A program made the translations under genes and the position numbers. Positions 3,039-41,527 of a stretch of 41,996 nucleotides of DNA are shown here, piece by piece. Under the pieces are notes generated by a model. That model was given only the letters and a program-made list of their open reading frames with translations. It did no database searches and was not told where the DNA came from. Source of the DNA: a virus (Duplodnaviria; Heunggongvirae; Uroviricota; Caudoviricetes). Position 1 is the stretch's first letter, and each line of letters begins with the position of its first letter. The stretch is taken from the IMG/VR virus record IMGVR_UViG_2681813224_000020. One strand, given 5' to 3'.

Positions 3039-3898
3039 GCGGCCCTCACAATATAATTAAAAGCGATGTTACGAGGACGAGTTTCTGTACCTACATTTTC
3101 ACTAATTTCACCATAACGTTTAACACTACGAGAGCTAAGAGCTCGTAGTGAGGAAGGCACCTTAAGACCGGGTTCGTCCGTTTTAACTATTCCCCCGTCA
3201 CCGTATGTAGCCAGTATTCCTGGGTTTACGCCTTCCCGTGCACTTCCTGCGGCGAGTCCGTCCCCTGTCCATAATTCCATATAGTGTGCATGGTCCAAAA
3301 TTGTGTGTGGCTGCCAATTAAGCAAAGCGCGACCAGTATCAATCCCGCGACCGTCATCCCAGCCACGAATAAATTCACCGCGTAAATCAGGCAATTTATT
3401 GGTCGGGTAAGCCTTTGCCAGTTCCGGGTATTCTTCAGCAGAAAAAGCCGCACCATTGCATTTCAGCCAGCCTGTCGGCGGAGTGGCTGAAGGCCACGGA
3501 ACAGGCACCCCAACCGGTAATGCAGAGCCTTCTCCCAAACCAAGGTTTTCGAGAGCCGTTTTCACCGTGCCATCCGATTTGATATCGCCAAACGGATTCT
3601 TGCGGCTCAGGTATTCAACAGCAAACCCCGATCCCAGCAATTCAACAAAACCGGGCAGATCACCATTATCAAGCACATCCCGTTGCGTTTTATCACTTAC
3701 AAACTGGGCCAGAGCTGCAGCAATAAAGCTGGCCTGCCGAATAACCTTATTGACTTGCGCACTGGAGGCTTTCCCTGCTGTAAATCCAGATAAAAGCGCG
3801 GGCAACGCTTCCCATTCCTCCTGCGATATAACATTGGCATTTCGATCCGTTGCAAACGCTTTAAAGTCATTTTTCGCCATCAGAGTAATACTCCCCAT
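3035..3898 (-). CDS. Tail-fibre protein: constant N-terminal part 3556..3898, variable C-terminal part inside the invertible segment
   Basis: 287 aa; C-terminal collar-like motif [27 protein letters not shown]...[10 protein letters not shown]; gix-like site embedded at 3530..3555. Confidence 0.8.
3530..3555. repeat. Right recombination (crossover) site of the invertible segment, inverted relative to 1665..1690
   Basis: TTCTCCCAAACCAAGGTTTTCGAGAG lies inside the tail-fibre gene and encodes ENLGLGEG; the partner site encodes NVGLGEA in the alternative exon. Confidence 0.65.
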
Positions 3899-19886: not shown

Positions 19887-21204
19887 TCTCTATGTCCTCG
19901 TCGGTAATGGACGCCCCGATGCCGGTTACGTCAGAATTTTCGCGCAAATCAGTCATAGCGGCTTTCAGTGTCATCAGACCATCACCCAGCGCCGTACTGA
20001 TCGCGGTGGTGGTGTTTACGGCCACCGTTGAGCGGTCAACGTCAGACATTTGCCATAGCGGGTTAAACTCAAACGTGAAATCGTCCGGCAGCGGCTTGCC
20101 AAGCTCCGAACGATGCATGATGTCCAGTATCCGACGCATCGGCATCCGTAAGCGGCGTTCCTGCAATGAGCTCACCCGGTCGTAATAGTTGGCGAGGTCT
20201 GCGTCACCAGTAGAGAAGCCTTTCGGGGATTGACCGAACAGTCGCACCAGCGGGATACCAACGGCACCGCTGATCTGCTCAGCGAACTGCGAAAGAATGT
20301 CATCCAGACCGCTGAAGCTGTACTGGTGGGTTTCGAACTTATCCCGCGAGTCCATGAGCGTCATGCCTTCATTGCTCTGGAACTGGCGGATCAGGTCGAT
20401 GTTCTTCAGCAGCGCTTCATACGCAGGACCACCAAGTGCGATAAGCTCGCGTAGCTTCTCCACGCTGTAGGTACGCAAATGCGCTTTGTAGACCAGCTGC
20501 GCCGCGCCGACAGTGGCGCTGTCGAACGCAGTAAGCCGATCCCAGATACGCTCTACAACCGACATTCCCCATTCGTTTTCGGTCATCTTCTGCTGGAATG
20601 GCAGCGTCACCCCGTCGAAGCGAATCAGGCGGCTGTGATGGATGCGCCAGGCTGGAATGCCCGTGGCAGTGGTCACCACATCGTAAAACTCAGGTTTGCC
20701 GAGATCCGGCCCCATCTCTTTAATGCGGCGGGTCATCACCGGGTTAATCATCCAGCGGTCGAGCGGGAGAATGCCCTTAAACTTGCCTTCTCCAATGGTT
20801 TCGAGCCGCAGCGGGGTCATTGGTGCCTGCCCCTCAATCATGATGAAGCCAACCGCACCGCCATAGAGGCGCGACCATTTCAGCACGTCATTCAGCGCAT
20901 CCCAGATTTGCAACTCATCCAGTTGTGATTCGAGAATGCCGCGATCTTTTGCATCAATTTCCGAAGTGATGCGAATGCCTTTGCGGGTCATATCATCTGG
21001 GATAGCATCGACCGCTTCGCCGATGATCCAGGACGAACGATAGGACCATTCCACCAGCATGCGGTTACGACTGGTGAAATTAGCCCGGTAGGTGGATGCT
21101 GAGTGCTGGTTAGGTGTCTGCATCCCTACGCGGGCAATAAAATTCTCATAACCATCAGCTGTGGCCTGCGCAGTTCGCCGCAGGGCTTGTTTGTTTCGTG
21201 CCAT
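19738..21204 (-). CDS. Portal protein
   Basis: 488-aa ORF immediately downstream of the large terminase; size and position typical. Confidence 0.75.
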   Translation of the reverse strand: MARNKQALRRTAQATADGYENFIARVGMQTPNQHSASTYRANFTSRNRMLVEWSYRSSWIIGEAVDAIPDDMTRKGIRITSEIDAKDRGILESQLDELQIWDALNDVLKWSRLYGGAVGFIMIEGQAPMTPLRLETIGEGKFKGILPLDRWMINPVMTRRIKEMGPDLGKPEFYDVVTTATGIPAWRIHHSRLIRFDGVTLPFQQKMTENEWGMSVVERIWDRLTAFDSATVGAAQLVYKAHLRTYSVEKLRELIALGGPAYEALLKNIDLIRQFQSNEGMTLMDSRDKFETHQYSFSGLDDILSQFAEQISGAVGIPLVRLFGQSPKGFSTGDADLANYYDRVSSLQERRLRMPMRRILDIMHRSELGKPLPDDFTFEFNPLWQMSDVDRSTVAVNTTTAISTALGDGLMTLKAAMTDLRENSDVTGIGASITDEDIENAEDEAPPGIGELGDKPPESPGGNPISNEPTADSAGGRGYRKWSLRWFK

Positions 21205-22826
21205 CAGGCCTGTCTCCCTAGCAGCTCCCAGATGTTCAGGGCTGAATTCATTGGGGCATAGTTGATCATCACCGAGTCGGCAAGGTTTGGCGATCGGGTT
21301 CCATCAGGCTGTTTATCAATAACGATTTTTCCCACACCATTAATGGAATAGGTCGGCTGCGAAAGCTCGATGATGAGTTTATCTTTGAGTGCCATGCTAC
21401 TGCTGATTGAGATGATTTCGTCCGGGTTGTAAGCCATACCTTCAACCACGGCGCGCCAGGTATTCTGAAAAAGTTTACGTAACCGCCACCAGCTCTGGGC
21501 TTTGGCGTTAGCGAAGAAGTCCTTGTTCAGACGTGCTGCTTGCCCGTTGTCCCCGCGAACAGCTTCATCATCCGGATCAAATACCGCGCCACTACCTCGA
21601 AACGGTGTGGCAAGTATTGACGGTCGACGCGCAGCGTTACGCAGTTCGTTGATAGCGCGTGCATCGCCGCGAACGCCAGCGCCCAGCCCGTCCTCGTCAA
21701 AGCGAAACTCTTCAAGATCGTCCTGTTCGCAAAAGCCGAAGACCTTCTCGACGGACTGATAAATGTCGCTGCCCACACCGGACCATTCCCGCACATTTTC
21801 CAGGAGGAAGCCATGACGGGTGGAAAAGGCATTTTTGTCCCTGCCTTCGTCGGCGACATCCATCGCGCCAAGTCGTTTGCCTGTTGGCTGGATACCCAGT
21901 TTGATATGCGCATCAACGGCAGCCTGTACCCATTCGGATGGAATCAGGACGCCTTCCGCTGATGCGCTGTAGTTCAGATCAAGTTCCTGTGCCACCACCA
22001 CCGGATTATCGATTTTCTCGCATTCCCTGCGATACCACTCTTCATCCTTGCGAGGATCATCCCGCCAGTGGAATGTGAATACCGGTATCTTCCCGCCATG
22101 ACGCTTCTGAGCGAACGGGTTCGCCATGCCGTTAACTGAACTCAGGTCAATACGGCAACGCGTCGTTTGTGACAACGCCGCATCAATCAGCAGAGGACGC
22201 TGAAGGAATGCAGCCTCATCAACCAGATAAAGCGTGGTACGGTCACCACGACCAATATTATCGCCAGCCTCGCCTTTGATAACGGCACCAGTTTCAGGAA
22301 ACTCAACACGCATATATGGCGCGTGCTTCTTCTCGCTCCACGAACCGCGAAACTCTACAGGTAGTGTTTCCACGAACTTGCGCGCCTTCCAGAACAATGC
22401 TTTCGGGTCACCGGTGCTGTCGACGTATTCCTCTTTACGGGAGCCGAAACCGATAACCATTTCTTTGTTGAAGAGACAAAGCGAGCAGGCCAGTCCGATC
22501 GCGGTCCAACTGAGCCCCATTTCACGGGATTTTTCGGTAATACCATTCTCCCGATTGCTCCAGCGTTCCATAATCCAGTGGATCCACTCCTCCTGCTTAG
22601 GGAAGAGTAAAAACGGAATGGTCACCGGCAGGCCATAATCAATATTACGCGGGTCCGTTGTCATGCCCCAGTCGATGATGAACTGAGCCGGATTGGTTCG
22701 GTAAAACTGCTTCAACACGGGCAATATTTCAGGATTCTGGCGAATGCGCTGTAGGCGTTCCATCCGCCATTCAAAAACCATCTGGTAATCAGGATGTTTA
22801 AAATCGAAGGGGAATGGTAACGGCAT
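21204..22826 (-). CDS. Terminase large subunit
   Basis: 540 aa; Walker-B-like [10 protein letters not shown] in the N-terminal ATPase region and a C-terminal nuclease-like region; follows the small subunit. Confidence 0.85.
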
Positions 22827-25195: not shown

Positions 25196-25630
25196 TCATA
25201 CCAGCGTAGCGCAGTTTTTGCGTAGCGCACTAATACTTTTTTCATCCCTTTGAATTTCGACCTCAGGATCCATCTGAAGGCTCACACCCAGCATGCAGAG
25301 ACACCCCTCAATGAATCCCTCAGCTACCTGCAACTGCTGGCGGATAAATCCTTCAGAACAGCGACGCCGCCGCCCTATCTCACGTTTGCTTAACCCGTAG
25401 ACGTAGTACAGCATAATGACGTCCAGTTCCTCAGGCTTACGGACCTGCTGCAGTCGACAGACGCAAGCATCGATAATCAGGCCATCGTCGTCACAGCAAC
25501 TCAGCCTGCCAGGCGAGCTGCTGACTACCAGCCCTTTAAATCCCGCCGCTATTGGAGCCCAGCTCACTGTGGTGTTGCTATTGGCAGCCCAGCCACCCCA
25601 GCGCTCTAAAACCTGTTGAATATTACGCAT
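25196..25630 (-). CDS. Late-gene antiterminator Q (QuuD-like family)
   Basis: 144 aa; N-terminal MRNIQQVLERWGGWAAN... matches the start I remember for E. coli prophage QuuD-type antiterminators; CCDDD and Cys-rich motifs; immediately upstream of the late-promoter/terminator/lysis region. Confidence 0.75.
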   Translation of the reverse strand: MRNIQQVLERWGGWAANSNTTVSWAPIAAGFKGLVVSSSPGRLSCCDDDGLIIDACVCRLQQVRKPEELDVIMLYYVYGLSKREIGRRRRCSEGFIRQQLQVAEGFIEGCLCMLGVSLQMDPEVEIQRDEKSISALRKNCATLV

Positions 25631-25679
25631 AGCTCTGACCTCTACGTTTTGCTACGAAAAAATTTTCTGAGAACCACGT

Positions 25680-25935
25680 TTGTTTATCCGTGGGTGTGGA
25701 TAACGCAGTTCCGATTCGCTTATTACACGCTGTTATGTGCAAAAAATTCCTTGTTCGGCCTGTACCAACCTGTACCCACCTGTACCAGCTCTTTTCAAAC
25801 CTTTTCCCCAAGCGACTTATATATATATATGGGGTTCTTAGTAATTAGGTTGGTACAGATGGTACAGTTGGTACTGGCCTTTAAATTCAATTAGTTAAAA
25901 TGTACCAACCTCTATTTTGAGGTTGGTACAGGTTG
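25680..25935. other. Putative origin of replication: DnaA box, two triplets of 10-bp iterons in inverted orientation flanking an (AT)n tract, and a terminal palindrome
   Basis: TGTGGATAA at 25695..25703; direct repeats TGTACCAACC / TGTACCCACC / TGTACCAGCT at 25761..25790 with exact 10-bp periodicity; TTATATATATATAT at 25818..25831; inverted copies GGTTGGTACA, ATGGTACAG, GTTGGTACTG at 25848..25876; 12-bp perfect palindrome TGTACCAACCTC-N6-GAGGTTGGTACA at 25901..25930 overlapping the primase stop. Confidence 0.45.
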
Positions 25936-28104
25936 GGACACCGCCTCAAAAATTCGAGTCATTTTCCCCCCAATTCGCCTTTGGGCACGCTTATACCCGC
26001 AATTTTGCAAAACATTACTAATTCGCATTTCTTCGCGTTTTCCGATGCGGTCAGGATTTAGCCCAATCGCATCACGCAAAACATCACTTGCGCGTAAAAA
26101 TTCGCAATTTCGCGGAAGTTCATTAGTCATCAGGTCTGGCGTGTCGAGCCATTTCTCTACCGTTTCAAGCCAAGCATCCTTGATGGTGTACTGTTCATGG
26201 ACACTCGCTGCCAGTTGTTCAGCCTCACGGAACTGGATACCCCCCAGACGCTGAAACACCTCACGAGCCTCAGCCCAAAGTAAAAGGAGATCTCTTTTTA
26301 TCGCTTTCACGTCGACTTTCGACACTTCCACGGGGAGCCAGCGACGGTTACCAGTCTTGTCCGCAAGGAATTCGTCCTCATTAGTGGTACCAACGAACAC
26401 CAGGCGACGAGGAAACTGGGTGGCGAACTCCCGGTATTTCGGGATCCAGTTTTCGTGAGTACGCGTCACAAACGCTTTGATTGACTCCAGCTCTTTGGTA
26501 TTAAGTCCGCGCAGTTCACCAATCTCTGCCACCAGCCGACCACGCATTTTTCGAGCGAGATCATCGTCTTTTTCGGCAAAAGAGATTTCAGTAAAAAACG
26601 CAGGATCAGGGCTCAGTGCCTCCACTCCGGAAGACTTACCGCAGCCCTGCGGACCAACGAGGATCGGCACCATATCCGCTTTGATGCCTGGCTCCAGTAC
26701 TCGCCCCGCCAACGCGGTCCACATGTACATAGACACCGCACGGGTATAAGGCGTGTCGGCGGTACCGAAGTGCGTATGGTAGAAACATTCGATGCGCGGC
26801 ACGCCATCCCACTCCAGTCCGTTCAGCCAGGTGATCGCTGAATCGAATGGTTGTTCATCGGCTGCAAGTAACACCACATCGCGAATAAGTTCACGACCAA
26901 CAGGTTTAAATCCCCGCTTTTCCATCGTGATGCGTAGGCGCGCATAATCCGCATCAGTGAATGCCCGCCATTGTCCGGATCCTGCAGGGGCAAACATGAT
27001 TTCGTCGCGGAACTGGTCAAAGCGAATATCGATGTCCACAAAATCAGGGCGTACTACTGCTTTGGCTGCGTTGCTGATTGTTGCCTCGATACGCCCCCAT
27101 TTATCACGCTCGAAAGCAGGCAGCGGTAAAGGTTCCGCCACTTCGGTGCTGGTCAGATCTTCGAAATCGTCGTTGCGGATCCCGATGGCATTAAGGAAAT
27201 CTCCGTCATCACGATGCGCACAACTGGCATGCAGGCATTTAAAATGCCCCTGCTCAAAGCCCGCGGTTCCCGCAGGAAAATAAACTGTGCTTGTTGGATC
27301 GCCCCCGCTACTGTGGCCGTCTTCAAACGGACAGCGGATATATCGTTCACCATTTGCGCCATCCAGCAGCGTCCAGCCATTGGCATCAAGATATTCAGCT
27401 GTATCATCCGTCGCGCCGGGCGTGAATGCTGATCGGTCGCGCATCTTCGTGTTGCCCGCTTCGGTGGTTACCGACACAGGGAGTTGTTCAGCCAGGCGCT
27501 GCCACAGCGTTTCAAGCTGCTCACCAGTAATAGCCGGAGGTTCATCCGGCAAACCGCCGTCCCATTCAATACGCGCGCCGCTGCTGTGCGTACCGCAGGC
27601 AACGAACTGCTGCCCGTTCGCCAGCAACTCGATAATGCCCATATCCCCCGCCAGGCGATGGATACGCTTACGGAAATCACCATCAACGGCCAGCAGATAC
27701 AGACACTTATTACTGTTTGCTCGCCAGCGTCGCGGCGGCAACTCACCCAGACGTTGCACAAGCGTTTTGCGAATATCTGCCTGAATGTCTTCATCTTCGC
27801 TATCACAGTCCAGCGCCAGCCAGCCATGGCCTGTACGCACGCAGATGCCATAATCCGGTTCATTCGACCAGCGGGCAAAATCATGCTCAGTAACAACATG
27901 CCCGGTCCATTGAGCAATACCGGTGACCTGGCGGTCCCGGTTATAGCGACTCGGCGTCTTACCCAACGCTTTCAGTTTACTATCAGGGGATATGGTCGCA
28001 CTGGGGTTACATACAACTGGGAGAAGATGATCAGTTCTCCCCAATACCAGGTCGAAATGAAACCACTCATCAGGCGTAGCTCCCCATGGTTTGCTATCGG
28101 ACAT
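25912..28104 (-). CDS. Replication primase-helicase (primase/polymerase-type N-terminal domain plus P-loop NTPase; P4 alpha / D5-like)
   Basis: 730 aa; Walker A LVGPQGCGKSSG in the C-terminal half; acidic primase-like N-terminal region; translationally coupled to the cro-like gene; iterons at its 3' end. Confidence 0.75.
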   Translation of the reverse strand: MSDSKPWGATPDEWFHFDLVLGRTDHLLPVVCNPSATISPDSKLKALGKTPSRYNRDRQVTGIAQWTGHVVTEHDFARWSNEPDYGICVRTGHGWLALDCDSEDEDIQADIRKTLVQRLGELPPRRWRANSNKCLYLLAVDGDFRKRIHRLAGDMGIIELLANGQQFVACGTHSSGARIEWDGGLPDEPPAITGEQLETLWQRLAEQLPVSVTTEAGNTKMRDRSAFTPGATDDTAEYLDANGWTLLDGANGERYIRCPFEDGHSSGGDPTSTVYFPAGTAGFEQGHFKCLHASCAHRDDGDFLNAIGIRNDDFEDLTSTEVAEPLPLPAFERDKWGRIEATISNAAKAVVRPDFVDIDIRFDQFRDEIMFAPAGSGQWRAFTDADYARLRITMEKRGFKPVGRELIRDVVLLAADEQPFDSAITWLNGLEWDGVPRIECFYHTHFGTADTPYTRAVSMYMWTALAGRVLEPGIKADMVPILVGPQGCGKSSGVEALSPDPAFFTEISFAEKDDDLARKMRGRLVAEIGELRGLNTKELESIKAFVTRTHENWIPKYREFATQFPRRLVFVGTTNEDEFLADKTGNRRWLPVEVSKVDVKAIKRDLLLLWAEAREVFQRLGGIQFREAEQLAASVHEQYTIKDAWLETVEKWLDTPDLMTNELPRNCEFLRASDVLRDAIGLNPDRIGKREEMRISNVLQNCGYKRAQRRIGGKMTRIFEAVSQPVPTSK

Positions 28105-28107
28105 GGG

Positions 28108-28320
28108 TTAAGCCTTTTTATCGTTTTGTGAGCCATACAACAGCCAATTAGGGTCGCAATCCAATGCTATAGACATTTCAAGAAGATAACGTGGCCGAGC
28201 AATAACACCACTTTCAATTCTGTTTATTGCCTGCTGGCTCACTCCTGTGAGCTCAGCCAACGTAACTTGCGTCATTTTGAGTTCTTTACGTCGTTCTTTT
28301 ACTCGGGTCGCTAAGGTCAT
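28108..28320 (-). CDS. Cro-like HTH (XRE-family) regulator
   Basis: Start MTLATRVKERRKELKMTQVTLAELTGVSQQAINRIESG preceded by GAGGTGA; divergent from the CI-like gene. The ORF track extends to 28338 via a TTG. Confidence 0.6.
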   Translation of the reverse strand: MTLATRVKERRKELKMTQVTLAELTGVSQQAINRIESGVIARPRYLLEMSIALDCDPNWLLYGSQNDKKA

Positions 28321-28440
28321 TGCTTTCACCTCATACAATTTTAGTGGTATTTAGCAACAACAAATGAGGTTTGTCAAATACAACAAAAATTGTTTTTAAT
28401 GTGGGGATACACATTAATACAACCCAGAAGGACTAATCCC
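28321..28440. promoter_or_regulatory. Divergent immunity-switch region (OR-like) with operator dyads and a candidate pR-like promoter
   Basis: Dyads ATACAATTTTAGTGGTAT (28333..28350) and ATACAACAAAAATTGTTT (28378..28395), third ATACAA at 28417; minus strand has TTGACA-N18-TAAATA upstream of the cro-like start. Confidence 0.45.
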
Positions 28441-29064
28441 ATGTCTCTCGCAGCCCGTTTTAAAGCACGTCGTTTGGAATTAGGAATGACTCAAGTGGAA
28501 GTAGCGAATTCTGCAGGGGTTAGCCAACAATCCATAGAATCCATCGAAAGCGGACGAACCAGAAAGCCACGCAATCTTCTGGATCTGGCTAAGGCCTTGA
28601 AATGTAGCCCAGACTGGCTACTGAACGGTAAAAATATTATGCCTCTCGCGGAGATAAGTACCAGACGCATACCTATATTAAGTTACGTTCAGGCAGGAGA
28701 GCTTACAGAAGCAAGAGACATAACAGATCTGACAGGGGAATTTGAATATATTTTGGCAGACTCTGACATTCCAGAAACATGCTTCGCATTACGTATCGAT
28801 GGCGACAGCATGCAACCAGAGTTTAAAGAAGGAGACATTGTTATCATCGATCCTGATCTATGTCCTGCACCAGGGGAGTTTGTTGTCGCCAAAAACGACG
28901 GTCACGAAGCTACATTTAAAAAATACCGTCCATTAGGAATCGGCATCGACGACTTTGAATTAATCCCCCTAAATCCTGATTACCCTATTTTTCGTAGTGC
29001 AGATATGAACTTACAGATCATAGGTGTAATGATCGAACACCGTATTTACCGCCGTAAACGTTAG
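28441..29064 (+). CDS. CI-like repressor (N-terminal XRE HTH, C-terminal S24 LexA-type autopeptidase)
   Basis: Start MSLAARFKARRLELGMTQVEVANSAGVSQQSIESIESG preceded by AAGGA; C-terminal FALRIDGDSMQPEF...VVAKNDGHEATFKKY carries the Ser/Lys dyad context. The ORF track start 28390 adds 17 codons. Confidence 0.8.
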   Translation: MSLAARFKARRLELGMTQVEVANSAGVSQQSIESIESGRTRKPRNLLDLAKALKCSPDWLLNGKNIMPLAEISTRRIPILSYVQAGELTEARDITDLTGEFEYILADSDIPETCFALRIDGDSMQPEFKEGDIVIIDPDLCPAPGEFVVAKNDGHEATFKKYRPLGIGIDDFELIPLNPDYPIFRSADMNLQIIGVMIEHRIYRRKR

Positions 29065-34207: not shown

Positions 34208-34228
34208 GCATTCTTAACTTCGGTTATA

Positions 34229-34256
34229 AAAAGCCGCCATTTTGGCGGCTTTTTAT
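34229..34256 (+). terminator. Rho-independent terminator after the SIR2-like gene
   Basis: AGCCGCCATTTTGGCGGCT followed by TTTTATTTATT. Confidence 0.55.
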
Positions 34257-34283
34257 TTATTAAATCCAACGGGTCCTTACTTG

Positions 34284-36359
34284 ATGCAAAAACTTTGGTT
34301 AGACCTCGAAACTTTCAGCGAAATCCCAATAAAAAACGGCACCCATGTCTATGCAGAAGGAGTCGAAATCATGTTATTCGCATGGGCAATCGACGAAGAC
34401 CCCGTCAGCGTACACGATTTAACCACAGACTATAACTTGCCGACACGACTACTGACAGCTCTCAGCGATGAGAGCGTACTAATATATGCACACAACAGCC
34501 ATTTCGATCGCACCATGTTGCGCCATGCATTACTGCACACTCCCCAATGTGTTGTTGCAGGTAGTGCCAAACGCTGGCGAGACACAATGGTACAGGCGCT
34601 GGCGCATGGTCTCCCGGGGTCTCTGGGGGAACTCTGCGAAATACTCGGCGTCCCGCAAGACAAAGCGAAGGACAAAGAAGGTAAAGCGCTGATCCAGCTG
34701 TTCTGTAAGCCCCGCCCGAAAAACAGCAAACTGCGCCGTGCCACCAGCAAAACCCACCCGGAAGAATGGCGGCGCTTTGTTGCTTACGCCGGACTGGATA
34801 TCGAGGCAATGCGCGAAGTCTATAAACGTCTGCCGAAGTGGAATTATCAGGGGACAGAGCTGGCGCTCTGGCATCGTGATCAGCAGATCAACGACCGGGG
34901 CGTCTGCATGGACATGCAACTCGCGCGCGCTGCGATCGAAGCGGTAGACCAGGAGCAAAAGCGCCTGGCAAAGCGTACACAGGAAATGACTGATGGCGAA
35001 GTGCAGGCAGCCACACAACGGGACGCGTTGATTAAGCACATTGTTGAATCCTACAGTGTGGAGCTACCAGACATGCAACGCAGTACTCTGGAACGTCGTA
35101 TTGCCGACCCCGATTTACCATCTGCCGTGAAAGAACTGCTGGCTATCCGCCTGCAAGCCAGTACTACCAGCACCAGTAAATACAAGGCACTGATGAAAGG
35201 CGTAAGCCACGACGGGCGCTTACGCGGTACGCTACAGTTCTGCGGGGCGTCACGTACCGGTCGTTGGGCCGGACGGCTATTCCAGCCCCAGAACCTTCCC
35301 CGCCCTTCACTAAAACAGGAACAAATAGACGAAGGCATCGAAGCACTGAAAGCCGGATGTGCAGACCTGCTGTTTGACAATATCATGGAACTAACCAGTT
35401 CAGCGTTACGTGGCTGCATTATCGCGCCAACAGGCAAAAAACTGGTGGTAAGTGACTTGTCAAACATTGAAGGCCGTATGCTGGCATGGCTGGCGGGAGA
35501 AGAATGGAAACTGAATGCATTCAGAGAGTACGACGCCGGAACGGGTCCGGACTTATATAAACTGGCGTATGCAAAAGCTTTCGATATTGCACCAGATGAT
35601 GTTGATAAACACATGCGTCAGATCGGTAAAGTCATGGAACTCGGTCTGGGTTATGGAGGTGGTGTATCGGCTTTCATCACTTTTGCTCTGGTTTACGGTC
35701 TCGATCTCGACGAGCTGGCGAACGCCGCACTGCCAAACATTCCCCGCGATGTTATCCGCGAGGCGAAAAGCTGGTACGACGAATCGGTTAAACGTAAGTC
35801 GACCTTTGGCCTTTCCGAGCGTGTATTCATCGCATGTGACTCGCTCAAGCGCCTGTGGCGCAGGGCGCACCCGGCGACCTGCGATTTCTGGTACGAGCTG
35901 GAGCGCACTGTCCGCACAGCAATCGCCACACCGCAAAAAACATTGTATTGCGGTTATCTTAAAATCCGACGTGATGGCGCGTGGCTGCGCATACAGCTAC
36001 CATCCGGACGCGCTGTATGCTACCCGTCTCCGGTTATCGAAAAAGGGAATATCACCTATATGGGTGTTAACTCTTATTCGCGTAAATGGCAACGACTCAA
36101 AACCTACGGCGGAAAGCTGGTGGAGAACGTCACCCAGGCGGCCGCCCGCGACGTTCTGGCCGGAAACATGCCGCTTATCGAAGATGCCGGTTACAGCATT
36201 GTGTTGACGGTACACGACGAGGTGATCACCGAAGCACCTGACACAGAAGATTTCAACGATAAAGTGCTTTCCGCGCTTCTCTCCACTAACCCCGAATGGG
36301 CGCCCGATATCCCACTGAACGCTGGCGGTTTTGAGGCGTACCACTACCGTAAGGATTAG
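34284..36359 (+). CDS. Family-A DNA polymerase (3'-5' exonuclease plus polymerase domains)
   Basis: Exo I LDLETFSE; motif [19 protein letters not shown]; motif [17 protein letters not shown]; motif C TVHDEV. Start taken at [11 protein letters not shown] (ATG 34284); the ORF-track start 34242 lies inside the upstream terminator. Confidence 0.85.
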
Positions 36360-36412: not shown

Positions 36413-37174
36413 ATGATGCAGGATCTCAATGAAATGGCTCTCAAATACCCACACCCTGTCGAAACTTTTCGTCAATTTTTAGTCGAATCCGGATTTGATG
36501 TTACCGGAGAAGAAAACAAAGCCGGTCATGATTGTTATCGTTTAAGTAATGGTGCCATCATAACGCTTTACCACACCGGAACGATTTTGATTCAAGGCTC
36601 ACAAGCGGCAAAACCAGAGGTTGAAGCCATTATTAATGAACACTTGGGTAACGCGCCAGCTCAACGAGTTCAGCCAGCCCCGGTTCAAGAGCCAGCCAAA
36701 AAGATTTTCATCGTTCACGGTCACGACCATGCAGCAAAAGAGCAGCTTGAGCTCATTCTTCATAAGCTTGGGTTACCTGATCATTTTATTTTGCAGAATA
36801 CAGGTGGTACTGGACTTACGATAATTGAAGAACTGGAGCGTGAAATTGGTCAAGGGCAGACAGCGACTCGTTTCGGCATTGTTCTTCTCACTCCCGATGA
36901 TGTGGGATACTCCAAAAGAGACGGTCAAGAAGCAGCCCTGCCCAGGGCTCGTCAAAATGTAGTTCTAGAAATGGGGATGTTGTTATCATCACTCGGCCGC
37001 AGTAACGTGGTCATCTTGCAGAAGCAACACCTTGAACAGCCTTCTGATGCTGCGGGTATTCTTTATCTCAACTTTAATGATCATGTTCGAGAAACTGTAC
37101 CTCGCTTAATCCAGCGCCTTAAACAGGCCGGTTTCACATTTAATGAAGCTCAAATAGCGAACGCTTCATCTTAA
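36413..37174 (+). CDS. Two-domain protein: small N-terminal domain plus C-terminal Rossmann-like nucleotide-binding domain resembling TIR-like / SLOG families; candidate accessory gene
   Basis: 253 aa; C-terminal domain motifs KKIFIVHGHDHAAKEQ, NTGGTGLTIIEELERE, FGIVLLTPDD; Pro/Gln-rich linker APAQRVQPAPVQEPA; RBS AGGAAA; own terminator. Family assignment is tentative. Confidence 0.4.
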   Translation: MMQDLNEMALKYPHPVETFRQFLVESGFDVTGEENKAGHDCYRLSNGAIITLYHTGTILIQGSQAAKPEVEAIINEHLGNAPAQRVQPAPVQEPAKKIFIVHGHDHAAKEQLELILHKLGLPDHFILQNTGGTGLTIIEELEREIGQGQTATRFGIVLLTPDDVGYSKRDGQEAALPRARQNVVLEMGMLLSSLGRSNVVILQKQHLEQPSDAAGILYLNFNDHVRETVPRLIQRLKQAGFTFNEAQIANASS

Positions 37175-37195
37175 TCAATCATTTTTCTAAAAAGT

Positions 37196-37228
37196 AAATA
37201 CCCCTGCAAATGCAGGGGTATTTATTTG
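37196..37228 (+). terminator. Rho-independent terminator after the TIR/SLOG-like gene
   Basis: ACCCCTGCAAATGCAGGGGT followed by ATTTATTTG. Confidence 0.55.
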
Positions 37229-39930: not shown

Positions 39931-40127
39931 GCGAGAAACCCGACGATTTACTCACCCCGGATGAAGTATGCCAAAAGTTAGGTATTACACAGAAAACGCT
40001 ATGTGAGTGGAATATTAAGCATCGTCATCGGGCTATCCTGGCACCAATTCGTTTCAGTGCAAAAGTAGTTCGTTATGAGCGCCGAAATGTCGACGCTTTT
40101 ATTCAAAAATGTCGCAGCCAGTATTAA
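39927..40127 (+). CDS. AlpA/excisionase-like small DNA-binding protein
   Basis: 66 aa; LLTPDEVCQKLGITQKTLCEWN helix-turn-helix typical of AlpA/Xis proteins; immediately adjacent to the integrase. Confidence 0.6.
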   Translation: MSEKPDDLLTPDEVCQKLGITQKTLCEWNIKHRHRAILAPIRFSAKVVRYERRNVDAFIQKCRSQY

Positions 40128-41527
40128 CCTCGCCGCCGTAGCAATGCCACCTGCGCAAGTATGCTCCGCTCGTGAGCCTCGAAAGCTTCGCGCTTCAACG
40201 CAATCTCTTCCTGTAAAATCTCATCAGAAAAGTCGTAATGTTCTGCCATCGGGTCATCTGACTTGCTGGAGTGGTGAAGGCAAAGGAGGCTGATTTCCCT
40301 TCGGTCTGAGCGGGAATAGCCTCTTTCCTTCATCAAGGCAATAACATTGCTCTTAAGGAATTTACGGCACATCGTATTAAATGCACCGTCTTTCCCTTTA
40401 ACAGTCCCATCATGTTTTATTCCTTTTACAGCCCCGTCCGGGCTGTATGTTTTCACCAGCTTATCCAGTGATCGTTTTGAAAATGGCTGCATTGGATCAC
40501 GTGGCTGCAAAAATACATAATCCCTGTTGCACTCAGGAACTGAATCACGCCAGGCTTTCTGCTCGTCGATAATCCGCCGGATCTCAGGCGTTATCGGCAG
40601 GCGGAAAGCCTTTTGTGTTTTCATAGCCCCTCGCATGCCGATAACCCCTTCCGGATAAACAATTTCACCAGCCTCCTCGTGAACGTAGTCCCAGCGCAGG
40701 TTATGGACATTAATCGGACGAACACCAGTGATGATCATGAAGCGAACAGCATTCTTCTGGTGTACAGAGGTGCAGGCAGCAACATTGAGCCAGAGTCGGG
40801 CGATTGATTCAATATCGGTAAAAAGCCGTGTGGGGGTAGGTTTCTGTACGCGGGAGGAAACATAATCATCTGGCAGACTGGCGGCAACATTGCGGCCGTT
40901 GCAAAGAGTAGGTGCGCAGAACTTCCAGAACCGACGGAGCTCGGCAAACAACTCCAGGGCGTTATTGTTCGAGCGAGTGGCGATCCACTCGTCCAGCACT
41001 TCCACCAGCCGACTGTATGTTACGTCGCTGAACACCTCGCGCTCGCCGAACGTTGATTTAATCCGGTCGATACGCACCCCGTAGGTTGTGAAACTGTCCG
41101 GGCTCAGCTTCTGACGGGCTACTTTGGCTTTGAGGTCATCCCGGTACATTTCCAGCGCTGCATGTACGGACTCTGCCCGCAGTCCACCGTCAGCCATACC
41201 TAGTGCTTTTTCGCGCGCCAGCTGGATAGCGAGCTCCGGCCACTCGCCGAGCTTTTTACCTTTGAGGCCCATCTTTTTTGGAAACTCGGCGTAAAATGTA
41301 ACCTTACCGGCTTTGCTGAAATCGATACGGAGATAGTTCTCTTTTTCGTATTTGGAACGGCGAGCCACGCCGGAAGCAGCGAGGATGATTTTGGCGGCAG
41401 CAACACAGATTTTCATGTGTGCGCTGGTATAGGGGGGTTTACAGGCGTCCCATTTTTCAGAAGCGGCTAAAACATCGTCATTATTGGGGCTATCCGGATT
41501 ATGTGTTACAGTGCGCGGCATTCTCAA
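40124..41527 (-). CDS. Tyrosine site-specific integrase
   Basis: 467 aa; ITGVRP...LRWDY (box I Arg), MKTQKAF (Lys), LHHSSKSDDPMAEHYDF (box II His and catalytic Tyr); RBS AAGGA; at the prophage edge next to the host gene. Confidence 0.85.
   Translation of the reverse strand: MRMPRTVTHNPDSPNNDDVLAASEKWDACKPPYTSAHMKICVAAAKIILAASGVARRSKYEKENYLRIDFSKAGKVTFYAEFPKKMGLKGKKLGEWPELAIQLAREKALGMADGGLRAESVHAALEMYRDDLKAKVARQKLSPDSFTTYGVRIDRIKSTFGEREVFSDVTYSRLVEVLDEWIATRSNNNALELFAELRRFWKFCAPTLCNGRNVAASLPDDYVSSRVQKPTPTRLFTDIESIARLWLNVAACTSVHQKNAVRFMIITGVRPINVHNLRWDYVHEEAGEIVYPEGVIGMRGAMKTQKAFRLPITPEIRRIIDEQKAWRDSVPECNRDYVFLQPRDPMQPFSKRSLDKLVKTYSPDGAVKGIKHDGTVKGKDGAFNTMCRKFLKSNVIALMKERGYSRSDRREISLLCLHHSSKSDDPMAEHYDFSDEILQEEIALKREAFEAHERSILAQVALLRRRG

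Follow-up and report, generated by a model that had tools for sequence, protein, structure and literature searches.

The replication initiators (Reps) of Staphylococcus aureus pathogenicity islands (SaPIs) are self-loading superfamily 3 (SF3) helicases whose C-terminal winged helix reads short repeats called iterons, and they bind and melt their origin without ATP or helper proteins (PMC9371898). In a SaPI origin, which immediately follows the rep gene on its 3′ side, 6–12 iterons surround an AT-rich centre; each side has at least two, and the two sides point in opposite directions. Structure 7PDS is that of SaPI1 Rep1 bound to DNA (PMC9371898). The phage-inducible chromosomal islands (PICIs) of Escherichia coli exhibit the same layout, wherein two iteron sets flank an AT-rich region 3′ of the initiator gene (PMC6092414), and the function of one such unit, the pri-rep-ori region of EcCICFT073, was demonstrated by plasmid maintenance (Fillol-Salom et al. 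2018, PMC6092414). Here we compare these systems with a repeat array in IMG/VR virus record IMGVR_UViG_2681813224_000020, a 41,996-nucleotide Caudoviricetes sequence that is called the window hereafter. An earlier note, made from the sequence alone, had proposed that the array between a primase-helicase gene (here called rep) and the gene for the Q antiterminator is a replication origin. Comparative sequence analysis makes it very likely that positions 25740–25945 constitute the origin from which an E. coli prophage replicates vegetatively, that this origin belongs to the pri-rep-ori type of SaPIs and PICIs, and that it is served by the adjacent Rep.

A search of both strands of the 42-kb window for TGTACCAACC, allowing up to two mismatches, locates nine copies within positions 25761–25940, not the six that had been described. 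Read in the orientation of rep, where > and < give the iteron direction and [AT] the spacer, these copies form a group at the rep stop codon (>><), a triplet with a 9-bp period (>>>), a (TA)n centre and an opposed triplet with a 10-bp period (<<<). The array spans −28 to +142 relative to the rep stop and comprises the following features.

25931–25940, minus strand: iteron 1, TGTCCCAACC, inside the last rep codons, at a position kept in relatives.
25921–25930, minus strand: iteron 2, TGTACCAACC, in the last rep codons; one palindrome arm.
25901–25910, plus strand: iteron 3, TGTACCAACC, just past the TAG stop and inverted relative to iterons 1 and 2; the other palindrome arm.
25848–25875, minus strand: iterons 4–6, AGTACCAACT, TGTACCATCT and TGTACCAACC (25848–57, 25857–66 and 25866–75), the rep-proximal triplet with a 9-bp period, facing the AT tract.
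25791–25847, no strand assigned: central spacer and candidate DNA-unwinding element, CCCCA-(TA)n-AAGTCG...GGGGAAAAGGTT, with the (TA)n tract TTATATATATATAT at 25817–25830.
25761–25790, plus strand: iterons 7–9, TGTACCAACC (25761), TGTACCCACC (25771) and TGTACCAGCT (25781), the distal triplet with a 10-bp period, inverted relative to iterons 4–6.

Three direct repeats with a 10-bp period, as the earlier note had it, are thus present in the distal triplet, and the AT tract said to lie between the triplets is found as well. The inverted copies expected about 60 bp away also exist, across a spacer of 57 bp, but their period is 9 bp rather than 10, a spacing that recurs in relatives. Likewise, the 12-bp palindrome noticed at the primase stop is real (25901–25912 and 25919–25930, over the TAG at 25912–25914 on the minus strand), but it is not a separate element. 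Its arms are two copies of the array iteron, which form the third iteron group together with the ninth copy, TGTCCCAACC, alongside.

This clustering far exceeds the background. All four exact matches to TGTACCAACC in the window lie inside the 180-bp cluster, and of the 28 matches with up to two mismatches, nine are in the cluster and 19 are spread over the other 41.8 kb, a density that predicts roughly 0.08 matches per 180 bp (Poisson P ~1e-15). The cluster is the top direct and inverted repeat family of the whole window, in which motif and repeat scans revealed no second iteron cluster (such as the crr site of phage P4 discussed below) and no other origin candidate. The spacer is 68% AT, compared with 51% for the entire window, and contains a GC trough of 0.30.

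The protein encoded beside the array and two of its parts are located as follows.

25912–28104, minus strand: rep, encoding a primase-helicase-initiator of 730 amino acids (aa), with an N terminus resembling PrimPols of the archaeo-eukaryotic primase (AEP) type, a VapE/SF3 helicase at aa ~393–657 and a predicted C-terminal winged helix.
25942–26175, minus strand: predicted winged-helix domain, aa 644–721 (AlphaFold2, block-mean predicted local distance difference test (pLDDT) ~76–86).
25942–25965, minus strand: second wing strand, aa 714–721, KMTRIFEA, a putative specificity determinant that covaries with iteron class.

The helicase of this protein is homologous to that of SaPI Reps. The VapE-like Pfam family PF05272 matches aa 427–639 (E 2e-60), and 7PDS is the only Protein Data Bank (PDB) entry recovered by phmmer (E 7.9e-34, aa 393–657). 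The same structure ranks first when a model of full Rep is searched with Foldseek (E 7.5e-18, ~460 aligned columns), followed by weaker matches (E 5e-4 to 3e-3) to the helicase region of NrS-1 and to the PrimPol folds of pRN1 (1rni and 3m1m), NrS-1 and African swine fever virus; the range for the pRN1 and NrS-1 PrimPols is E 2e-3 to 1e-2. PHROG families identify the N-terminal 320 aa as a DNA primase (E 4e-40) and the remainder as a DNA helicase. No Pfam match to a Prim-Pol domain was obtained on the window Rep at E ≤ 0.01; its close homologues, which are named ‘replication protein’ or ‘bifunctional DNA primase/polymerase’, carry PF09250 along with PF05272. The AEP/Prim-Pol assignment is made because these homologues, the PHROG families and the fold matches agree on it. 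Across an alignment of 38 sequences, the DxD residues D99 and D101, H173 and the Walker A residues G487, K490 and S491 are invariant, and Rep has its catalytic motifs intact. Beyond the helicase, AlphaFold2 predicts helices at aa 644–653, 672–680 and 689–701 and strands at 704–711 and 714–721. This helix-helix-helix-β-hairpin order suggests that aa 644–721 form a winged helix that could serve as the iteron reader.

A second version of Rep was also encountered (loci L011–L015, L019 and L024, and L107 from phage APSE). It matches only aa 312–730 of the window protein and has the same helicase, winged helix and origin layout, joined to an unrelated N-terminal domain of ~340 aa that starts with MEIRYS or MQIRYS. 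The primase module of Rep therefore appears to be exchangeable.

Set beside the loci of SaPI1 Rep1, SaPIbov1 Rep and SaPI5 PriRep5, the window locus shares a homologous SF3 VapE-like helicase core, an origin directly 3′ of rep and an AT-rich centre. As in SaPI5, the primase is fused to the helicase, and a C-terminal winged helix is predicted here too. Nine iterons fall within the SaPI range, and they are arranged in opposed sets with at least two per side. E. coli PICIs occur in the same host genus and have the same layout, a comparison made between origin layouts and not between Rep sequences. The differences begin with the element itself: its host is Gram-negative, and it is not a satellite but a temperate phage of full size that encodes a DNA polymerase and a single-stranded DNA-binding protein (SSB) of its own. 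Whereas a PICI is a satellite of about 10–15 kb that needs a helper phage and has no structural or lysis genes of its own, this phage occupies ~40 kb with cI/cro, Q, lysis, terminase, head and tail genes; integrase, cI/cro, Q and holin were found by family searches, and terminase, head and tail genes were assigned from the size and order of open reading frames (ORFs) over that length. The origin also has an extra iteron group over the rep stop, and no sequence similarity is detectable between its winged helix and the one in SaPI1 Rep; aligned by phmmer, the two proteins match no further than aa 657. The locus is most likely a known type of origin, the SaPI/PICI pri-rep-ori, operating in a complete temperate phage.

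To place this arrangement among relatives, we used a comparison set of 96 usable loci, composed of 16 full-length matches from 25 genome-contig loci, 78 of 80 viral contigs, Yersinia phage YeP4 and the window; viral relatives number 331 in all and protein relatives 1377. The layout >><>>>[AT]<<< is exact in 40 of the 96 loci and exact or a close variant in about 90. The same layout was recognized by eye in YeP4 and APSE-1, which are phages deposited as complete genomes, and in Caulobacter phage RapA and Acidovorax phage ACF1. Thus the layout is kept in phages of Alpha- to Gammaproteobacteria, with all copies of the iteron changing in concert. The array follows rep in all relatives, and the next gene is Q in about 40 of the 96 loci and some other gene elsewhere. 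At least 14 iteron classes are represented: TGTACCAACC, TGTCCCAACC, TGGAACCACC, TGTAACCACC, TGTATCCACC, TGTTACCACC, TAGACCACC, TAGACAACC, GTAACAACC, GTAGCCACC, GTCACCAC, GGTAACAAA, AGTGTAGAAA and GGGAACA. The central CCCCA-(TA)n-AAG...GGAAAGGTT element persists across loci whose iteron classes differ. Because all copies at a locus change together across a conserved spacer, each array appears to be read by one sequence-specific binder.

Rep is the neighbour whose sequence follows these changes. The six-residue wing strand was compared among 77 distinct sequences and set against the identity of the remaining C-terminal 400 residues. Wing-strand identity is 0.80–0.95 for pairs with the same iteron and 0.24–0.28 for pairs with different iterons, and this contrast is present in every band of core identity from <80% to >95%. 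Each class combines a characteristic strand with its iteron: [MV][TV]R[IV]FE with TGTACCAACC, KMRIFE with TGTCCCAACC, K[CS]K[VLI]W with TGGAACCACC, [LS]MKVW with TGTTACCACC, QQR[IV]F with TAGACAACC, QIRVW with TAGACCACC and SQRVY with GTAACAACC. In nearly all classes, a tryptophan in the wing accompanies ...CCAC iterons, and phenylalanine or tyrosine accompanies ...(C/A)AAC. The misfits to this rule are L018 and ACF1, in which GGGAACA-type iterons occur with a ...WAF wing. From this covariation we infer that the second wing strand determines specificity for the iterons.

A natural exchange between two classes is visible when the window is aligned with locus L034. The two DNAs are near-identical up to the GGK codons and diverge through the wing strand and all iterons; the spacer is kept, and near-identity returns in the segment upstream of Q. 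The breakpoint falls exactly after GGK, which is followed by MTRIFE in the window and by KCKVWE in L034. Other neighbours do not behave in this manner. Loci of two iteron classes encode Cro proteins with 100% identity, and Q is 99% identical to the window protein in loci of another class and 44% identical in loci of its own class. The comparison of L027–L031 with L032, L034 and L043 indicates that Q is mosaic, the 44%-identical proteins sharing only the N terminus with the window Q, and recombination breakpoints can for this reason be placed on both sides of the origin cassette. Since Cro, Q and the downstream gene fail to covary with the iterons, Rep is the only neighbour that tracks them. 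Q and Cro were each considered as the iteron binder and rejected, as identical Cro and Q proteins occur with different iteron classes. That the origin is served by the adjacent primase-helicase, as the earlier note had supposed, is strongly supported by the Rep homology, the architecture and the covariation taken together.

Several observations weigh against an origin of the SaPI/PICI type. The iterons are 9–10 nucleotides long, compared with 5–6 in SaPIs. The wing codons lie 30–60 bp from the first iterons, and co-transfer in one recombination tract could explain part of the covariation. Confidence in the structural model is moderate, with a pLDDT of 65.6 for the full-length protein and 74.4 for the isolated C-terminal domain; when that domain is searched by itself with Foldseek, all matches have E >0.01, and they include many winged-helix proteins, 7PDS among them. 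A terminator scan flagged the hairpin formed by the palindrome, which is followed by TTTTAACT and resembles an intrinsic terminator. Finally, our literature search found no paper that links VapE-type Reps to iterons in these phages. For APSE it found no published origin; a comparative-genomics paper placed the origin by a skew tool only, and the present repeats were not described in it.

If the model is correct, prophage induction would yield a cro-rep transcript and, from it, the 730-aa Rep, whose C-terminal winged helix would bind all nine copies of the TGTACCAACC iteron. Within each copy, the shared ...ACC part is probably recognized by the conserved recognition helix, and the part that is specific to a class probably by the variable second wing strand. 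Rep would form hexamers at both convergent triplets, and these would melt the conserved (TA)n spacer that separates them. Self-loading of the SF3 helicase, with no need of DnaA, DnaB or DnaC, would follow, and the N-terminal AEP primase would lay the first primers, which the phage family-A DNA polymerase and gp2.5-like SSB would extend. The third iteron group (>><) over the rep stop probably adds Rep binding and may act as a weak terminator or roadblock. What the sequences themselves show is the anatomy of the repeats, the homology of Rep to SaPI1 Rep, a conserved architecture and the wing–iteron covariation; binding, melting, priming and DnaA independence we infer.

The foremost alternative is a classical DnaA-assisted iteron origin, as in pSC101, P1, F and RK2, at which host DnaA bound to its consensus and a phage initiator open the AT tract together. 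We consider this quite improbable. The site on which it depends is as follows.

25695–25703, minus strand: exact DnaA-box consensus TTATCCACA, the only exact copy in the window, situated in the segment upstream of Q.

A perfect DnaA box about 60 bp from the repeats was thus correctly reported, its distance to the distal iterons being 57 bp, and a second box with two mismatches (TTATCCGTG) faces it. The box was also taken as part of a classical origin signature, an interpretation that does not survive comparison. About 0.3 exact matches to the 9-mer are expected per window and one is seen, and boxes with one mismatch are not enriched (12 observed, 9.4 expected) and occur at the chance rate across the other loci as well. 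The exact box is confined to 21 of the 96 loci, all of them close relatives that have near-identical DNA upstream of Q, and these span two iteron classes. Locus L068 retains the homologous segment with the box degraded to TTACCCACG, and no box is present in loci with other downstream modules or in YeP4, APSE-1, RapA and ACF1. Moreover, SaPI-type Reps load without a helper (PMC9371898), and a helicase, a primase, a polymerase and an SSB are all supplied by the genome of this phage. Because the DnaA box is not conserved with the module, as it would be in origins of the pSC101/P1/F/RK2 type, the origin does not appear to be of the classical DnaA-assisted kind, and the box was rejected as an origin component on its conservation over the 96 loci. 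It probably belongs to the Q-upstream segment and is incidental to the origin, and it may have a local auxiliary role.

Neither lambda O nor the Reps of plasmids have helicase activity themselves; instead, host DnaB is recruited via P or via DnaA and DnaC. The window locus resembles ori-lambda and the iteron plasmids in placing iterons by an AT-rich region and in having its own initiator, and two of its iterons lie inside the initiator gene, as at ori-lambda. It is unlike lambda and the DnaA-assisted iteron plasmids in that one protein serves as initiator, helicase and primase and the DnaA box lacks conservation. The alpha protein of P4 combines a primase, an SF3-type helicase and a C-terminal winged-helix origin binder that recognizes short octamers in direct and inverted orientation. 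Its primase is of the Toprim/DnaG type, and P4 needs a second cis site, crr, located kilobases from ori. Rep is similar in uniting a primase, an SF3-type helicase and a predicted C-terminal winged helix in one polypeptide, and it differs in its AEP PrimPol features and in the lack of any counterpart of crr in the window. No P4 alpha chain is among the PDB sequence or fold matches for Rep. A further parallel is ORF904 of pRN1, a PrimPol joined to an SF3 helicase whose essential cis sequence lies directly downstream of the gene (PMC4234260). The domain pair, the downstream cis sequence and the PrimPol fold match are common to ORF904 and Rep. In contrast to the phage protein, ORF904 is from an archaeal plasmid, with ~14% identity in the fold alignment; this parallel concerns the proteins and the position of the cis sequence.

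Another alternative, which we regard as very improbable, is that the array is a transcriptional control element without origin function, in which an operator or roadblock and an intrinsic terminator gate read-through from rep into Q. The array does lie between the early operon and Q, and on the rep strand the palindrome can form a hairpin with a 12-bp stem and a 6-nucleotide loop (−23.5 kcal/mol, z −4.1) followed by UUUUAACU, which is the sole hit in the array from scans for promoters and terminators. However, the array follows rep whatever gene is downstream, and neither Q nor Cro covaries with it. All relatives have inverted iterons where the palindrome lies, whereas L034 and L004 lack the T-tail. 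A control element also leaves unexplained why the triplets converge on a conserved (TA)n spacer. The operator for Q that the earlier note had offered as its alternative is therefore disfavoured, and we rejected it since the downstream gene varies. Termination or roadblocking is not the conserved function of the palindrome, and it is doubtful that, besides being part of an origin, the palindrome serves secondarily to terminate transcription weakly or to hold it up through bound Rep.

It is scarcely credible that the repeats serve partition, packaging or integrase arm binding, or hitch-hike with rep as non-functional sequence: repeat arrays by themselves are not specific to origins, but the window has no ParA/ParB genes, the likely large-terminase ORF (21204–22826, called from the ORF list and not by family search) is >2 kb and the integrase gene (40124–41527) >14 kb from the array, and conservation from Alpha- to Gammaproteobacteria with concerted change of the copies points to selection by a single binder encoded next door.

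Assignment of the array as a probable replication origin extends to a widespread prophage lineage that includes the aphid-symbiont phage APSE. A layout that has been called unique to PICIs would also be used by complete temperate phages, which bears on the source of satellite replication modules. The wing–iteron covariation provides a testable protein–DNA recognition rule and candidate orthogonal replicons. A more tentative proposal, to which we give somewhat less than even weight, is that the 3′ end of rep and the origin together form a specificity cassette of ~250 bp, composed of the wing strand, a disordered tail encoded by iterons and the iterons themselves, such that one recombination event switches specificity and leaves the helicase core and (TA)n tract unchanged. 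Were this true, the natural classes, at least 14 in number, would be a library of mutually orthogonal replicons, their diversification could stem from rivalry among co-resident prophages and satellites that possibly hijack Rep, and Rep bound to the stop-codon iterons might gate read-through into the late regulator.

The tail in question (aa 722–730, SQPVPTSK; 25915–25941) follows the wing and is encoded by the iterons themselves. It varies with iteron class, reading, for example, EPLEPRGTT in loci with GGAACCACC. Because it is predicted to be disordered (pLDDT <50), the tail probably amounts to a by-product of overprinting by the binding sites. In RapA (L108, 3100–3200), the iterons extend into the wing-coding region, and an insertion in the wing (KKPVTTGVYPPSKVWV) is encoded by GTAACCAC and GTATCCAC copies.

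The DNA that flanks the triplets has features of its own. The distal edge of the conserved module is marked by a short motif.

25738–25750, minus strand: flank motif AATTTTTTGCA, just beyond the distal iterons.

This motif occurs in the window, L001, L002–L006, L010, L011, L013 and YeP4, regardless of the downstream gene. It could be a weak promoter −35 or UP element, a host-factor site or a priming site; no convincing −10 hexamer lies at 16–18 nucleotides from it, and no sigma-70 promoter in the intergenic region passed the scan. A search for structured RNAs matched no Rfam family at E ≤ 1. The stretch from the proximal triplet to the palindrome (25876–25919) is a second AT-rich trough, with a GC content of 0.225. 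Within it lie TTTTAACTAATTGAATTTAAAGG, kept in several loci with different iterons, and a possible near-match to the consensus for integration host factor.

As a prophage, the window matches the chromosome of E. coli ECONIH2 at 100% identity over positions 25500–26300. Of 5426 complete E. coli genomes, 140 carry this segment as a single copy; relatives are found in Enterobacter, Salmonella, Klebsiella and Citrobacter. The genes nearest to rep are listed here.

25196–25630, minus strand: Q antiterminator, the next gene downstream of rep (PF06530, E 9e-51).
28108–28338, minus strand: Cro-like helix-turn-helix protein.
28390–29064, plus strand: LexA-like S24 repressor.

The rep–Q intergenic region measures 281 bp. 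Genes around the array run on the minus strand, and past Q come a holin gene, ORFs of the size of lysis genes and ORFs that fit morphogenesis genes by size and order. Pfam and PHROG family searches identify a DUF2800 nuclease, a gp2.5-like SSB, a family-A DNA polymerase and an SNF2-type helicase among the products of the leftward operon. Since this operon encodes a polymerase, an SSB and a helicase, the phage seems to carry most of its own replisome.

ORFs that have been drawn across the origin deserve caution. In APSE-1 (L107, NC_000935), a hypothetical coding sequence named ‘P4’ (3361–3582) overlies the origin iterons and AT tract, and two mechanically called ORFs over the window origin (25616–25894, plus strand; 25623–25811, minus strand) are equivalent to it. 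The APSE-1 ‘P4’ sequence and the window ORFs are probably not genes, and annotations of this kind can be flagged as probably spurious.

Two other strong, terminator-like hairpins occur elsewhere in the window. One has a perfect 14-bp stem (34226–34256) and lies immediately before the DNA polymerase ORF (34242–36359), whose start it overlaps; the second, with a 17-bp stem (37192–37227), follows the ORF at 36413–37174.

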